64,000 nt of DNA, taken from assembly GCA_021463465.1 (NCBI GenBank), contig JAJTYH010000002.1, forward strand, positions 1,347-65,346, given 5' to 3'. Positions 5,650 through 64,000 of the stretch are shown here, piece by piece. Within the stretch, counting starts at the first letter, position 1. Each line of letters starts with the position of its first letter. Made by a program: the position numbers and the translations under genes. The notes beneath the pieces were generated by a model. The model ran no database searches and was not told where the DNA came from. It worked only from the letters and a program-made list of their open reading frames with translations. The DNA comes from a bacterium (GTDB lineage: Bacteria; Patescibacteriota; Dojkabacteria; SC72).

Positions 5650-5958
5650 TTGAGAATGCAAGTAGTAATTGGAGAGAGATTGAGAAAGGTCAGGCAAGAA
5701 AGAGGGATTTCCCAAAAGAAACTGGGTCTGATGTTGGGTCTTTCTGATAAAGCCGTAAGTGCATATGAGAGTGGGCGCACATTTCCTCCTTTAGGCACTC
5801 TTTTTCGGATAGCTAAAGAACTTGGGTGCGATATAACGTACTTTTTTACTGCAGATCAAAGCGAAGCTAATGTGAATGATCAATTACTTAGAATTGAAAC
5901 ATTATTACAAACAGTGAACGGCGAAGTACAAAAATTGAAAAAGAGCATTTCTAAATAG
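5650..5958 (+). CDS. XRE-family helix-turn-helix transcriptional regulator
   Basis: LRKVRQERGISQKKLGLMLGLSDKAVSAYESGRTFP is a classic Cro/C1 HTH. 102 aa. Confidence 0.7.
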   Translation: MRMQVVIGERLRKVRQERGISQKKLGLMLGLSDKAVSAYESGRTFPPLGTLFRIAKELGCDITYFFTADQSEANVNDQLLRIETLLQTVNGEVQKLKKSISK

Positions 5959-57955: not shown

Positions 57956-58504
57956 ATGACAGCAGAAACAACATTTGAAGTAAGTGGCCAGCAATTTGAA
58001 TTAGGACTTCTTGAATTAAAGGATGTAGAAGATTTAGTTGAAGTCGCCAGACAGTGGGTAAGAAATAGACATACAGGACAAGTAGAAGAAGTGGAACTTG
58101 CCGAAATTAAAAGCAGAATGCTATCAAGTTTACAATCTCAAGAATACAGATACTTTGTAATACGAGATAATGAAAGCAAAGCAATAGGTTGTTGTGCAAT
58201 AAGAGAACCAGAAGAAGCAATGCAACAATACAAATCATCGCCTGATAGAAAAACCTCTGAATTTGTAAATGTGTTTCTAGACAGCAAACACAGAGGTTTA
58301 GGACTAGGGTATAGACTTATGAACTATATGTTTGAAAAAGCGAAAGAGTTGGGTCAAGAAGAAGTTATATGGAATAGTGGACCAAGATACAAAAATAGTG
58401 CTTGGGACTTTTATAACAAATTAGCTGGTGAACCTATTTTTGTTGCAAAAGAATTTTACGGTAAAGATGGGGATGCTCCAATTTGGAAAAAAGTAATTTC
58501 TTAA
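57956..58504 (+). CDS. GNAT family N-acetyltransferase
   Basis: HRGLGLGYRLMNYMFEKAKELG is the GNAT motif A (R-x-x-G-x-G). Confidence 0.7.
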   Translation: MTAETTFEVSGQQFELGLLELKDVEDLVEVARQWVRNRHTGQVEEVELAEIKSRMLSSLQSQEYRYFVIRDNESKAIGCCAIREPEEAMQQYKSSPDRKTSEFVNVFLDSKHRGLGLGYRLMNYMFEKAKELGQEEVIWNSGPRYKNSAWDFYNKLAGEPIFVAKEFYGKDGDAPIWKKVIS

Positions 58505-58894
58505 AATAGCGCTACTATTACAGATTTTTCAACAAAGACAGACGAATATCAATTAAGTGCATTTTCCTTTCCAGAAGTATCAGAGATTAGAAGTTTTGCT
58601 ATTGAGTTAGCACTAAAGTCGGGTCTTTTTAACCCAAAAACTGATGTATGGTTAGAAAGAATACAAACAAGGTATTTAGATACTGGCCAAAGATTGGGAG
58701 AGACAACTGGAGGTGATGCTCTTTTATCACTTATTAAGAGAGCAACCTTTCTACGGAATAGGAGAGTTGTGTGTTTAGTAACAAGTTTATCTGCAGTAAT
58801 TGATACTGAGAAACTACTTACGTTTTACCTTAAGAATGGATTTAGCCTCAGTGAAATAGAAGGTGTTACTTTCGCATATTTAGATATTCAATAG
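58505..58894 (+). other. open frame in phase with the upstream GNAT (separated only by TAA) encoding a second GNAT-like C-terminal segment with no canonical start for 63 codons
   Basis: Hand translation of the frame shared with 57956: ...RLGETTGGDALLSLIKRATFLRNRRVVCLVTSLSAVIDTEKLLTFYLKNGFSL is GNAT motif A/B-like. The first ATG/GTG/TTG in this frame is at 58694. Confidence 0.3.
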
Positions 58895-59099: not shown

Positions 59100-60059
59100 A
59101 TGAAAACTGTTTTAACAAAATCCGGAAAAGAGCTCTCTCCGATAGGAATAGGCACATATGGGATTGGCGGGAGAGGGCATCGTGATGTAAAGCTAAAAGA
59201 TAAGAAGGACGAATCAATATATGTACCGGCAATAATCACTCAATTACAAACAGGCTATAACTTTTCGGAGATATCTCTGGGGTATGGCCACGGAAAATCT
59301 GCTGAATATTTTGCACGTGCAAGACGAGAGAGTGGAATTGAAAGGGACGAGCTTTTCCTTACCAATTCAATATACCCAAGAGATATTTTGGATTTAAAAG
59401 TGTTAAAAGAAGATGTAGAGAAAATGTATGAAATATTCGAAACAGACTACTTCGATTCAACACTTGTGACACAATCATTAATTGTTAAATTTGGGTATGA
59501 GCAGGTGATAAAGATGCTTTGGGATCTTCTAAAGAAGAACAGAACCAGATATGTTACTCTTTCAAACTCAAATAAGAAACTAATCAAACAATTCCACGAT
59601 GAATTTAAGGGAAGTTTCTTTGCTCATGAAACTCACATCAGCTATGAAATTAGACTATGTCAAGATGAAGGTATCTTTGACCTCTCAAACAAACTCGGTC
59701 TACAAACCATTATTTGGAGACCCTTGCGACAAGGTTTGACAGCACAACACAACTGGGAGCTTCTACTTAAACTCTCTGAAAAGTATGGTAAAACTCAAAA
59801 TCAAATTGTACTCAACTGGATGATGTCACTCGGTTTTAAGCCAGAAGTATTTTCAACATCGATTACTCATATAAAAGAGAATTGGGAAGCAATGCAATTT
59901 GAACTTACAAAAGATGATTATGACGCGATAACAAGGCACCGAATACCAAACTACTCTCCACCAAAGATTAACTGGGATAATATGGGAAATGGGGATAGTA
60001 TCGTCCTGCCTGTTATGAATTTTGAAGAGGATTACAAGAAACCTACTCAGAATCAATAG
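59100..60059 (+). CDS. aldo/keto reductase family oxidoreductase
   Basis: IGIGTYGIGG and an overall 319-aa AKR (TIM-barrel) pattern. Confidence 0.7.
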   Translation: MKTVLTKSGKELSPIGIGTYGIGGRGHRDVKLKDKKDESIYVPAIITQLQTGYNFSEISLGYGHGKSAEYFARARRESGIERDELFLTNSIYPRDILDLKVLKEDVEKMYEIFETDYFDSTLVTQSLIVKFGYEQVIKMLWDLLKKNRTRYVTLSNSNKKLIKQFHDEFKGSFFAHETHISYEIRLCQDEGIFDLSNKLGLQTIIWRPLRQGLTAQHNWELLLKLSEKYGKTQNQIVLNWMMSLGFKPEVFSTSITHIKENWEAMQFELTKDDYDAITRHRIPNYSPPKINWDNMGNGDSIVLPVMNFEEDYKKPTQNQ

Positions 60060-60130
60060 GAAAAGCCTTAAATATCCGACGGATCTGTTTGATTAATCAA
60101 ACTTTATAGTATAGAATCCAGCACTTTCAC

Positions 60131-60370
60131 AAGGAGGTTGTGATGAAAACAAAGAAGAGAGAGCAAGAAAAGAAGACGGGAAAGGGAGGAGGAAGGCAGA
60201 AACAAACGAGAGAAAAGAAAAGGAGGAAAGGCTGGATAAATCGTAAGTAATCACGAAATCTAAAAAGAAAGGAGGTGAGGGAGTTGGCCCAAACCAAAAA
60301 AGAGAAGAAAAAAAAGGAAAAGGGGAAGCAGAAACCGACCGCTAAAACCAACGGCAAGAAAGGACACTAG
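60131..60370 (+). other. 240-bp polypurine (AG-rich) tract with repeated AAGGAGG motifs and two tiny Lys/Arg-rich ORFs
   Basis: The + strand is almost entirely A/G. AAGGAGG-N5-ATG (60143) opens a 35-codon ORF, MKTKKREQEKKTGKGGGRQKQTREKKRRKGWINRK. AAGGAGG-N8-TTG (60284) opens a 28-codon ORF, (M)AQTKKEKKKKEKGKQKPTAKTNGKKGH. Confidence 0.4.
60143..60250 (+). CDS. candidate 35-aa highly basic micro-protein with a canonical SD
   Basis: A perfect AAGGAGG is placed 5 nt upstream of the ATG, and the 35 codons end at TAA. The composition could instead just reflect the purine tract. Confidence 0.25.
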   Translation: MKTKKREQEKKTGKGGGRQKQTREKKRRKGWINRK

Positions 60371-60550
60371 TCCCATTCTGCCTCCAAAAGTGGGCTTATT
60401 CAGATTCAACATCACATGAGTAAGCCCACTTGCAACATTTTTCACACTCTCAACCGTTAAGAAAAATTTTGTTTTCGACCAAAATACTACTATAATACTG
60501 CCACTTCGAACATTTTTGTTGACTCAAATAATTGGAAATCTACTAACCAG

Positions 60551-62317
60551 ATGAGAAATATCTTTAAAATTATAAAGCTAAGCAAACCACTACACGGTTT
60601 GATGCTCTTAATTATTGTAATTGTAATACTTGGAACCCTTTTTGAAATTGTCACACCACTTCTTTCTGGAAAAATCCTAGACGAGGTAATTAGGCAATCA
60701 ACAAACCAAACGAAAGAATTTAGTAAACTCTTCACTCTTTTGGCACTTTCACTTTCATCAATTATCATCTACTTAGCGCTAAGGTCACTAGGGCAAAGAT
60801 TAGGCGACCATCTATCTGGGAAAATAAGAAAATTCCTCACAGAAATATTCTATGATAAAGCATTGAAGATCTCACAATCGTATTATGATTCAGAAATTTC
60901 AGGAAAATTAGTCAACCAGTTAAATAGAGGAATTGCTTCAATACAAGAATTTGCGAATGCCTCAACCAACTTTATCATCCCAACCTTTCTACAATCTTTT
61001 ATTGTTATAGGAATCCTAATGTACTTCAACCTATACTTAGGAATCTTAATGATTTCAATCCTTCCTATCTATCTATGGATTACATCTATCTCAACAAAAA
61101 GATGGGGGCTCAAGGAGGAAGGTAAAAATAAGATTGAAGATTTAACAAGAGGAAGGATTCAGGAGGTGATATCCAATATTAAACTTGTTAAAGGATTTAC
61201 GTCTGAGAAGAGAGAATTTAAGCTGCTTTCAACAAACTTAGACCAAATAAACGCAATATATAAACAGCAAAGTACAGAATTTCACCTTTTTGATTTTTTA
61301 AGAGAGTTAATTCTTAATGTAATCCTTTTTGGAACCGCTTAGATTATCTACAACAATACTTTAAATGGTCTTATTACCGTTGGGTCAGTCATTGTTTTAA
61401 TACAGCTTGTTGACAGAGCAAGATCATCCCTTTTTGGAATGTCATACATCTTAGGACAAATACAAGCAATCGATTCGGGCTCCAAAGAGTTTTTTGAAGT
61501 TTTAAATATTGAGACTACAGAAGATTACAACAAGAAACAAAAGTTTGAAAAAATTAAAAACCCAAAAATTGAGTTCCAAGATGTTACTTTCCAATATGAC
61601 AGTAATAAAACTGTACTAGAAAATGTTTCTTTTGATTTAAGTAAAAATGAAATGGTAGCACTTGTTGGCCCAAGTGGAGCAGGGAAGTCTACAATAGTTA
61701 ATCTGCTTCTCAAGTTCTATAACCCTACCTCAGGAGCCATTACATTTAATGGGAAAAAGTATTCAAAACTCTCACATAACCAAGTTAGGAATAATATAGC
61801 ATTAGTATTTCAAGAGAATGAACTCTTCTCACTATCTATCAAAGAGAATGTTGCATATGGAAGCGATATTGATGATAAGAAAGTCATATCTTCGCTTAAA
61901 AAAGCTAATGCCTGGGAATTTGTAAGTAACTTAGAAAAAGGAATAGATACCTAAGTAGGGGAAAGAGGAATTAAGCTTTCTGGCGGTCAGCGGCAGAGGA
62001 TTCAAATTGCTAGAGCCATATACAAAGATGCACCTATACTAGTACTTGATGAAGCAACATCAAGTTTGGATGCTAAATCCGAAAGTGATGTTTCAGAAGC
62101 TATTGAAAATCTTGTTAAAAATAGGCTAGTTATCGTCATTGCACACAGATTCTCAACAATTCAAAATGCGACAAAGATTATAGTTTTAAATAATAAAAAG
62201 GTAGAAGCAATTGGTGCACCACATATTTTAGCAAAAAAACCAGGTATTTACTCTGAACTTCTTAAGTATCAGATAAAGGGGAATAAGAAACTGCTCAAAA
62301 AGTTTGAGTTGTATTAA
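60551..62317 (+). pseudogene. MsbA/Sav1866-type ABC exporter (TMD-NBD fusion) interrupted by two in-frame stop codons (TAG 61340-61342, TAA 61952-61954)
   Basis: The ORF-table pieces 60551-61342, 61439-61954 and 62066-62317 all lie in one frame. Hand translation across the stops is continuous and conserved: ...LFGTA*IIYNNTLNGLITVG... (TM helix 6) and ...NLEKGIDT*VGERGIKLSGGQRQRIQIARA...VLDEATSSLD... (Walker A GPSGAGKST; signature and Walker B lie beyond the second stop). Confidence 0.75.
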
Positions 62318-62956: not shown

Positions 62957-64000
62957 ATGAAAAAACTCTTGGTAACTATGCTAACTCCTATCCTGATTAG
63001 CTTAATATACCTAGTGCAAACTCCCCAAAACATATCCGCTTCATTAAATACTTGGCTACAAACAGATTGGAGCGGAGGAAATGGACAAACTTCTTGGAGT
63101 GACGACACTAAGTACAACGTATCAAGCAATGTCGTGGCAAATGATTCAATCAGCCTAACAAATAGTAACAATTGGAACGACAGTAACTGGTTATATAGGA
63201 AAAAAATTACCTTTAATAATTCAGCGCAAGCAGAAAACCTTGATAATTTCATCGCAATGGTCAATTTGACCTCAGATAATTTTGATTTCACTAAGACAAA
63301 AGCAAATGGTGAAGATATTCGTTTTTTTGATGAAAACGGTTCAACTGCTTTAGAATATGATATTGAGGAATTTAATCAAAGCGCACAGGAGGCAATTATC
63401 TGGGTAAAAGTACCCAGAATTGATGCATCATCATCAACTGATAACATCATTATGTATTACGGAAATACATCTGCTAATGACTCACAAAACCCAACTTCAG
63501 TGTGGTCATCATACGAGCTCGTTTATCAAATGAATCAAGATCCATCAGGCTCAGCTCCACAAATTCTGGATAGCACAAACAATAATAGAGATGGAACTAC
63601 TTTTGGCTCTATGGCAAGTAATCAGTTGTTAACTGGTAAAATCGGTTCGGGTATTAACTTTGATGGGGTCAATGACTATATTAATGTAGGAAATATGAAC
63701 CCACATACATATGGAAGCGCAACCTTTTCGGCTTGGTATAAGTCATCTATCAATACATCAACTGATGATCAATATATCCTCCTTTATCTAGGTGGAGATA
63801 GACTTGTATTTGGTTTAACTGATGATTCAGGGAAAGTAGATCGAGCTAGGTTCTGTCTTAAGGAAAGCTGTTTCTTTGGTACTACCGATGTTGTAGACCA
63901 ACAATGGCACCATATTGTTGTTGTTAGAGATTATAATTCTACCCACAAACTATTTGTTGATGGCAATCTACAATCAAGTACCGCAGCACCGTTTCTTGGA
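62957..64000 (+). CDS. DUF2341 plus LamG/concanavalin-like domain surface protein; the C-terminal end runs off the window
   Basis: Missing from the ORF table because it has no stop. ATG at 62957 with a signal/anchor (LLVTMLTPILISLIYLV). NWLYRKKITFNN...GEDIRFFDENGSTALEYDIEEFN...IIWVKVPRI matches DUF2341. Then GINFDGVNDYINVG...W...LFVDGN is LamG-like. In frame through position 64000. Confidence 0.6.
   Translation, partial: MKKLLVTMLTPILISLIYLVQTPQNISASLNTWLQTDWSGGNGQTSWSDDTKYNVSSNVVANDSISLTNSNNWNDSNWLYRKKITFNNSAQAENLDNFIAMVNLTSDNFDFTKTKANGEDIRFFDENGSTALEYDIEEFNQSAQEAIIWVKVPRIDASSSTDNIIMYYGNTSANDSQNPTSVWSSYELVYQMNQDPSGSAPQILDSTNNNRDGTTFGSMASNQLLTGKIGSGINFDGVNDYINVGNMNPHTYGSATFSAWYKSSINTSTDDQYILLYLGGDRLVFGLTDDSGKVDRARFCLKESCFFGTTDVVDQQWHHIVVVRDYNSTHKLFVDGNLQSSTAAPFLG

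Follow-up and report, generated by a model that had tools for sequence, protein, structure and literature searches.

A purine-rich segment of a Dojkabacteria genome is read here, tentatively and at somewhat less than even probability, as an orphan, lineage-specific and self-contained cassette of two micro-open reading frames (micro-ORFs), each led by a Shine-Dalgarno (SD) motif. The segment is a polypurine tract (81% A+G) at positions 60131-60370 on the + strand of a 64,000-nucleotide (nt) stretch of contig JAJTYH010000002.1 (assembly GCA_021463465.1), and this whole 64-kb stretch is called the window below. The host lineage belongs to the candidate phyla radiation (CPR), and the closest matches of the two genes that flank the tract, encoding an aldo/keto reductase (AKR) and an ATP-binding cassette (ABC) exporter, are found in Dojkabacteria assemblies. 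The cassette would begin on the + strand at a promoter-like site (60089-60117), followed by a short leader that carries the first SD motif (SD1), then by ORF1, the second SD motif (SD2) and ORF2, and would end in a hairpin (60388-60431). The tract would then be mainly the nucleotide shadow of peptides rich in Lys, Arg, Glu and Gly, for all of which purine-only codons are preferred, and its purine richness a by-product of those codons. The products would be intrinsically disordered polycations with net charges of about +13 and +10, for which we infer nucleic-acid or ribosome binding as the most plausible activity. Among the options raised by a first-pass annotation of this DNA, small cationic peptides remain the best single reading, although no homologue, conservation or clear coding-frame signal was found for them.

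Two SD-led micro-ORFs in a polypurine tract

The tract is 81.25% purine (A 50%, G 31%, C 12%, T 7%), the highest value of all 240-nt segments of the window, which is 50.3% purine overall and whose 240-nt segments have a 99.9th percentile of 77.5%. On both strands it is the sole stretch above 72% purine, and the three longest pure-purine runs of the window (33, 24 and 19 nt) all fall within it. The first-pass annotation was right about the purine richness and somewhat overstated it in calling the strand almost pure A/G, since 19% of the letters are pyrimidines. Runs of A8 are not discriminating, because ordinary genes of the window have them too. The tract is predicted to be essentially single-stranded and unstructured, and Tandem Repeats Finder detected no array in it. 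Collections of phages and plasmids gave no blastn match to the intergenic region; thus, a mobile or phage origin is unsupported.

Re-reading of the sequence reproduced exactly the SD motifs, spacings, starts and ORF lengths given earlier. SD1 (AAGGAGGT, 60131-60138) includes AAGGAGG at 60131-60137, followed by five nucleotides (TTGTG) and an ATG at 60143, so that the full motif stands four nucleotides from the start codon. Its 8 nt are complementary to the canonical 3' end of 16S rRNA, CACCUCCUU, a sequence taken from general knowledge rather than read from the host; no 16S gene lies within the window. ORF1 (MKTKKREQEKKTGKGGGRQKQTREKKRRKGWINRK, 60143-60250, +) has 35 codons and ends with TAA (60248-60250). 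Lys and Arg make up 17 of its 35 residues (49%), and the peptide has an isoelectric point (pI) of 11.8, a charge of +13.5 and a grand average of hydropathy (GRAVY) of -2.7. SD2 (AAGGAGGTGA, 60269-60278) includes AAGGAGG at 60269-60275, followed by eight nucleotides (TGAGGGAG) and a TTG at 60284; the full motif, five nucleotides from the TTG, is a 10-nt match to the anti-SD complement, and eight nucleotides lie between its GGAGG core and the TTG. ORF2 (MAQTKKEKKKKEKGKQKPTAKTNGKKGH, 60284-60370, +) has 28 codons, ends with TAG (60368-60370) and shares the frame of ORF1; its Lys and Arg content is 12/28 (43%), in line with the earlier figure of over 40% for both peptides, its pI is 10.5, its net charge about +10 and its GRAVY -2.4. 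Both motifs thus lie 4-10 nt upstream of a start codon that opens a reading frame, and both extend past pure purine (AAGGAGGT and AAGGAGGTGA). ORF1 and ORF2 are the only intergenic cases in the window of GGAGG followed by a start codon and an ORF.

The earlier view that the SD spacing argues against pure chance survived a composition-controlled analysis, in which the tract was shuffled 3000 times with its dinucleotides preserved and embedded in its native flanks. The arrangement scored was an SD, a start codon 4-10 nt later and an ORF of at least 25 codons. GGAGG occurs five times in the tract against a mean of 1.16 in the shuffles, and AAGGAGG three times against 0.32. Two arrangements were found with P = 0.003 when the GGAGG core was required and P = 0.0003 with AAGGAGG; with AAGGAGGT, which is expected 0.03 times and is seen twice, no shuffle contained two. 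The two SD-ORF units align with each other as DNA better than shuffled units do (P = 0.003), whereas the similarity of ORF1 and ORF2 as peptides is not significant once composition is controlled (P = 0.14). The DNA similarity means that the two SDs may stem from a single duplication. The figure that counts would then be that for at least one arrangement, which ranges from P = 0.07 to 0.002 with the motif length required.

The low-complexity relic proposed in the first-pass annotation is the main rival of the cassette, and a close one. According to this explanation, which is somewhat less probable than the cassette, the tract is non-functional sequence, either a decaying Lys/Glu-rich coding remnant or a purine tract grown by local duplication, and the SDs and ORFs are incidental. 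The tract contains an internal direct repeat of 21 nt (76% identity), and the similarity of the SD-ORF units allows the two SDs to be a single duplicated event. A third AAGGAGG (60220-60226, +) lies inside ORF1 and no start codon follows it, which demonstrates that the motif also occurs in the tract outside an SD arrangement. Against a relic, even a single AAGGAGG with a start codon and an ORF is uncommon given the composition (P = 0.018; P = 0.002 with AAGGAGGT), and no source gene for a remnant was found in the window or in the related loci. Streamlined CPR genomes seldom retain gaps of 490 nt, which also counts against it; the tract occupies a 491-nt gap whose upstream edge is the AKR gene (59100-60059).

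Signals flanking the tract

A consensus scan placed a promoter-like TTGATT-N17-TAGAAT (9/12 matches) at 60089-60117 on the + strand. With this site, transcription would begin near 60124, and SD1 would fall in a leader of about 19 nt. Promoter-like sites are frequent in this AT-rich DNA (four found, 1.7 expected); therefore, the support from this one is positional only. On the other side, an inverted repeat (93% complementary) forms a hairpin with a 15-bp stem and a 14-nt loop at 60388-60431 (+), beginning 18 nt past the ORF2 stop codon and followed by GCAACATTTTTC, with a T-run at 60438-60442. Its folding energy is -23 kcal/mol (z = -6.1), none of 200 shuffles folded as well, and it is unique in the window. 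The hairpin is terminator-like, not a canonical terminator. That a promoter-like site and an unusually stable hairpin frame the tract is a further point against a relic.

A 17-nt direct repeat lies between the hairpin and the exporter start, with copies CCACTTGCAACATTTTT (60426-60442) and CCACTTCGAACATTTTT (60501-60517) 75 nt apart; the first of them shares positions with the 3' arm of the hairpin and with the T-run.

The exporter gene has promoter-like boxes of its own, read from the sequence at 60491-60546 (+): a perfect TATAAT (60491-60496) and TTGACT (60519-60524)-N16-TACTAA (60541-60546). The TACTAA ends 4 nt before the exporter ATG at 60551, a layout that fits the leaderless-like pattern of the lineage's other genes. 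Together, the upstream promoter-like site, the downstream hairpin and these boxes make the tract look like a separate unit rather than part of the exporter mRNA. The first-pass annotation had also suggested a purine-rich leader or ribosome standby element for the transporter. A 5' leader of this kind, acting as a standby site or as a Lys-rich leader-peptide attenuator, would suit a tract that lies upstream on the same strand and carries a Lys-rich short ORF followed by a hairpin. However, the -23 kcal/mol hairpin, 180 nt and the promoter-like boxes separate the tract from the ATG, and a polypurine sequence cannot form the alternative pairings of an attenuator; the only strong hairpin comes after the stop codon. 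In addition, orthologous exporters have upstream gaps of 6-120 nt with no tract, and the exporter itself is broken. A role of the cassette as leader of the ABC exporter is thus unsupported, and the leader explanation retains very little probability.

The same boundaries would also fit a non-coding, purine-rich RNA serving as a sponge like those of the Csr/Rsm type, with either the 16S anti-SD tail or a GGA-binding protein as the target it titrates. Like CsrB and RsmY/Z, the tract would be a GGA-dense unit between a promoter and a terminator: it has 13 GGA in 255 nt, against about three at the average rate of the window, and five GGAGG against 1.2 expected, and its depletion of T exceeds what the peptides require. 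It differs from these RNAs in that its GGA motifs are not in the loops of hairpins, the tract being essentially unstructured. No CsrA-like protein is encoded within the window, and nothing in the tract is conserved. Rfam searches at gathering thresholds and at permissive E values (up to 10) returned only three tRNAs and no family for the tract. A sponge RNA is a quite improbable explanation.

Coding potential, homologues and relatives

The evidence that weighs against the cassette comes from composition, from codon usage and annotation, from homologue searches, and from the habits of the lineage and the state of the neighbourhood. All three forward frames are open across the tract, because stop codons require T and T is only 7% of it. 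An open frame in the tract is therefore no evidence of coding, and for a relic the ORFs come free with the composition. The long complementary-strand ORFs rich in Phe, Leu, Pro and Ser, which the first-pass annotation had dismissed as spurious, are the mirror image of this effect.

If one of those ORFs were real, the minus strand would carry a gene for a small hydrophobic peptide, and the + transcript would be its antisense in the manner of a type I toxin-antitoxin system. GGAGG-N4-ATG does precede a 38-amino-acid (aa) hydrophobic ORF, MGLVSFLAVGFSGRFLLPLFLFFLLFFGLGQLPHLLSF (60265-60385, -), and ORFs of 53, 61 and 76 aa rich in Phe, Leu, Ser and Pro lie there. Such ORFs are nevertheless the expected by-product of a polypyrimidine strand; no minus-strand promoter-like site is found nearby, the ORFs are called nowhere and nothing about them is conserved. 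This explanation is the least probable considered here.

The two peptides, written with the codon usage of the genome, predict 80.5 +/- 1.6% purine, close to the 83.6% observed; coding would thus account for most of the purine richness. The choice of codons is less favourable to the cassette. Only three codons end in T, whereas 10.3 are expected from genome usage (P = 0.002), and GGT and ACT, the commonest Gly and Thr codons of the genome, are absent from the ORFs. In a three-frame comparison of codon likelihood, ORF1 had no frame-specific signal, and the own frame of ORF2 was weakly favoured, by 6-11 bits. Both the T depletion and the silence of ORF1 count in favour of a relic. Stop-codon reassignment was rejected, since 37 of 56 long ORFs end in TAA, the most frequent stop.

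No pipeline or gene caller has called ORFs in the tract on either strand, and an exact-sequence look-up gave no record of ORF1, as did a second look-up for eight candidate ORFs drawn from the two strands. Among 5.8 billion proteins searched through a word index, there was no homologue of the 74-aa product obtained by reading through from ORF1 to ORF2, and phmmer, run with ORF1 on 1.84 billion representatives, returned no hit. Metagenome and viral contigs scanned for peptide patterns, with confirmation by tblastn, yielded nothing, and neither peptide matched Pfam, NCBIfam or PDB sequences at E values up to 10. A DNA pattern of an SD followed by MKTKK(R/S) retrieved 44 loci from metagenome contigs; all were ordinary, unrelated genes of SD-using organisms and were set aside.

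Five independent assemblies of the population, the NCBI genome and four from Logan, carry the tract letter for letter, which excludes an assembly artefact; the identity gives no information on selection. Conservation of the purine tract and its micro-ORFs in other genomes, the check proposed in the first-pass annotation, was looked for in seven related loci and found in none. The four AKR orthologues (L005, L009, L010 and L011; 71-76% identity) are followed directly by unrelated genes, with no tract. The three exporter orthologues (L006-L008; 68-73% identity) lie in unrelated neighbourhoods, and their short upstream gaps likewise hold no tract. Since the nearest relatives are only 68-76% identical in the flanking proteins, this conservation test has little power. 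The absence of homologues and of conservation agrees with a relic as well.

Beside one of the orthologous exporters, a small called gene (L007, 7817-7948, -) has the likely product MANSNNQGGNNGGSQRGKEKREGGRNQESNS, a hydrophilic peptide with much Gly, Asn, Gln, Lys, Arg and Glu whose coding DNA is again purine-rich. No similarity of this peptide to ORF1 or ORF2 was detected, and it matches no family.

SD use in the lineage

Genes of this lineage are almost free of SD motifs, which were seen in any form at only 4 of the 129 genes considered. No SD-like motif stands upstream of 55 of the 57 long ORFs in the window (two have one), and allowing alternative starts within the first 50 codons added only weak candidates, in 3 of the 57. 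In the loci of relatives (L006-L011), a strong SD motif precedes 2 of 72 called genes, and rplJ and rplL, two ribosomal protein genes, lack one. Start codons often stand 4-11 nt past the end of a TATAAT-like box, a leaderless-type layout; these sequence patterns suggest that Dojkabacteria mRNAs are mostly leaderless or have very short leaders. A native SD-led gene would therefore be an exception here, which adds to the case against the cassette. The anti-SD has been reported to be kept in CPR bacteria outside part of Parcubacteria (PMC9297842). Our literature searches found no paper that describes an SD-poor or leaderless layout for CPR bacteria.

AGGAGG as such is neither enriched nor depleted in the window (28 observed, 21 +/- 4.7 expected), and 4 of the 28 lie within 144 nt of the tract. 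Another, at 5785 (-), is antisense to a 102-aa ORF on the + strand that resembles a helix-turn-helix regulator, by eye only.

The ABC exporter and its neighbourhood

The exporter gene (60551-62317, +) encodes an ABC-B exporter colinear with orthologues of 588 aa, and it is a neighbour of the cassette, not part of it. It is disrupted, as the first-pass annotation had noticed, and the damage consists of two in-frame nonsense codons, TAG at 61340-61342 and TAA at 61952-61954, rather than frameshifts. The TAG is polymorphic: four Logan assemblies have TTG (Leu) at this position, and the two orthologues examined have Leu or Ile. The TAA, a change from GAA, replaces a Glu of the orthologues and is present in every assembly that covers the position. 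The absence of frameshifts and the otherwise intact motifs make inactivation of the exporter look very recent.

The domains of the exporter are only ABC_membrane and ABC_tran; it is of housekeeping type and has unrelated gene contexts in relatives. This bears on the idea that the peptides are antimicrobial-like, which had been part of the small-peptide proposal and is unlikely: neither peptide has a signal, a leader or a hydrophobic face (GRAVY -2.7 and -2.4). A cationic antimicrobial or bacteriocin with a dedicated exporter was likewise not recognised, the peptides having neither a leader nor a hydrophobic stretch and the exporter only the two domains named, with no peptidase domain.

Nonsense mutation 1.7 kb downstream, in the exporter's fixed GAA-to-TAA and polymorphic TTG-to-TAG changes, brings to mind a further origin of the micro-ORFs, namely a single polycationic gene of about 75 codons split by a nonsense TAA at 60248, in which SD2 would be no more than in-frame codons. 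ORF1 and ORF2 lie in one frame, separated by the single TAA and 11 sense codons (SRNLKRKEVRE) that are equally rich in Lys, Arg and Glu; the spacer is 79% purine, and in this frame both SDs read as Lys-Glu-Val (AAG GAG GTN). Sharing a frame is nonetheless a one-in-three event by chance, and SD2 is a 10-nt anti-SD match placed 8 nt before a start codon. The 74-aa read-through product has no more homologues than the separate peptides, and a split gene is unlikely.

Upstream, a GNAT acetyltransferase gene (57956-58504) is followed by a frame that stays open for 129 more codons past its TAA (58505-58894). This frame lacks an early start codon, matches no Pfam family and does not resemble the GNAT gene. 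It may be either a gene deprived of its start or chance; a third in-frame interruption is not established, given the lack of a Pfam match and of similarity to GNAT. The neighbourhood is accessory in character and shows gene decay, which speaks against the cassette. In such a region, the readings of the tract as a relic and as a nonsense-split gene stay alive, and the exporter's two nonsense codons and the orphan open frame past the GNAT gene are in keeping with a relic.

Farther downstream, at 63321, a T-run has one T fewer than in four Logan assemblies of the population. The position is close to where a 117/124-aa gene adjoins a 665-aa DUF2341/Laminin_G_3 gene.

Discussion

As a candidate micro-gene unit, the cassette resembles the unannotated SD-led small ORFs of bacterial intergenic regions: its ORFs are short and below calling thresholds, with a strong SD at canonical spacing, a promoter-like site and a terminal hairpin. 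It differs from them in its almost SD-free host, in the low-complexity, extremely polycationic character of its peptides and in having no homologue or conservation.

The closest functional parallel, in logic only, may be rpsU, which encodes bS21. In Flavobacterium johnsoniae, rpsU is the one gene with a strong SD, and it regulates itself, since the anti-SD becomes exposed in ribosomes that lack bS21 (PMC9976891, PMC13000453, PMC7797042). There and in other Flavobacteriales, where SDs are otherwise lacking, a strong, extended SD leads a gene whose product is small and very basic, as one leads ORF1 and ORF2. The micro-ORFs differ in that they have no similarity to bS21 or to any ribosomal protein model, have half the length of bS21 and lack conservation in relatives. 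By analogy with this system, one might speculate that in a nearly SD-free, leaderless-type CPR lineage the anti-SD is normally unused or masked, and that strong SDs mark only the genes of tiny, polycationic, ribosome-associated proteins. Translation of these genes would report the state of the anti-SD, in an autoregulatory loop like that of rpsU/bS21 built from unrelated proteins. Such a scheme is very unlikely at present.

Small basic ribosomal proteins such as bL34, bL36, Thx, the mycobacterial bS22 and bL37 and the eukaryotic eL41 have 24-46 residues, 40-70% Lys+Arg and no hydrophobic core. The peptides of ORF1 and ORF2 share this size, charge and coreless character; those proteins are conserved within their clades, whereas the ORFs are orphans. 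No match to bS21, bL34, bL36, Thx, bS22 or bL37 was found in Pfam, NCBIfam or PDB sequences at E values up to 10.

In sum, a purine tract without equal in the window contains an improbable pairing of SDs, starts and ORFs, is framed by a promoter-like site and a stable hairpin, and lies in a lineage where SDs are scarce. The present sequence evidence does not separate a micro-gene from a relic, and the absence of a relative with the tract limits inference. If it is a relic, the tract merely marks gene decay in an accessory region. Should the micro-ORFs be translated, these genes would depend on SDs, whereas initiation in the lineage otherwise does without them, and such an exception could reveal a use for the anti-SD retained in CPR bacteria. 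Their polycationic products would be plausible as unrecognised components of the ribosome or nucleoid in small CPR cells.

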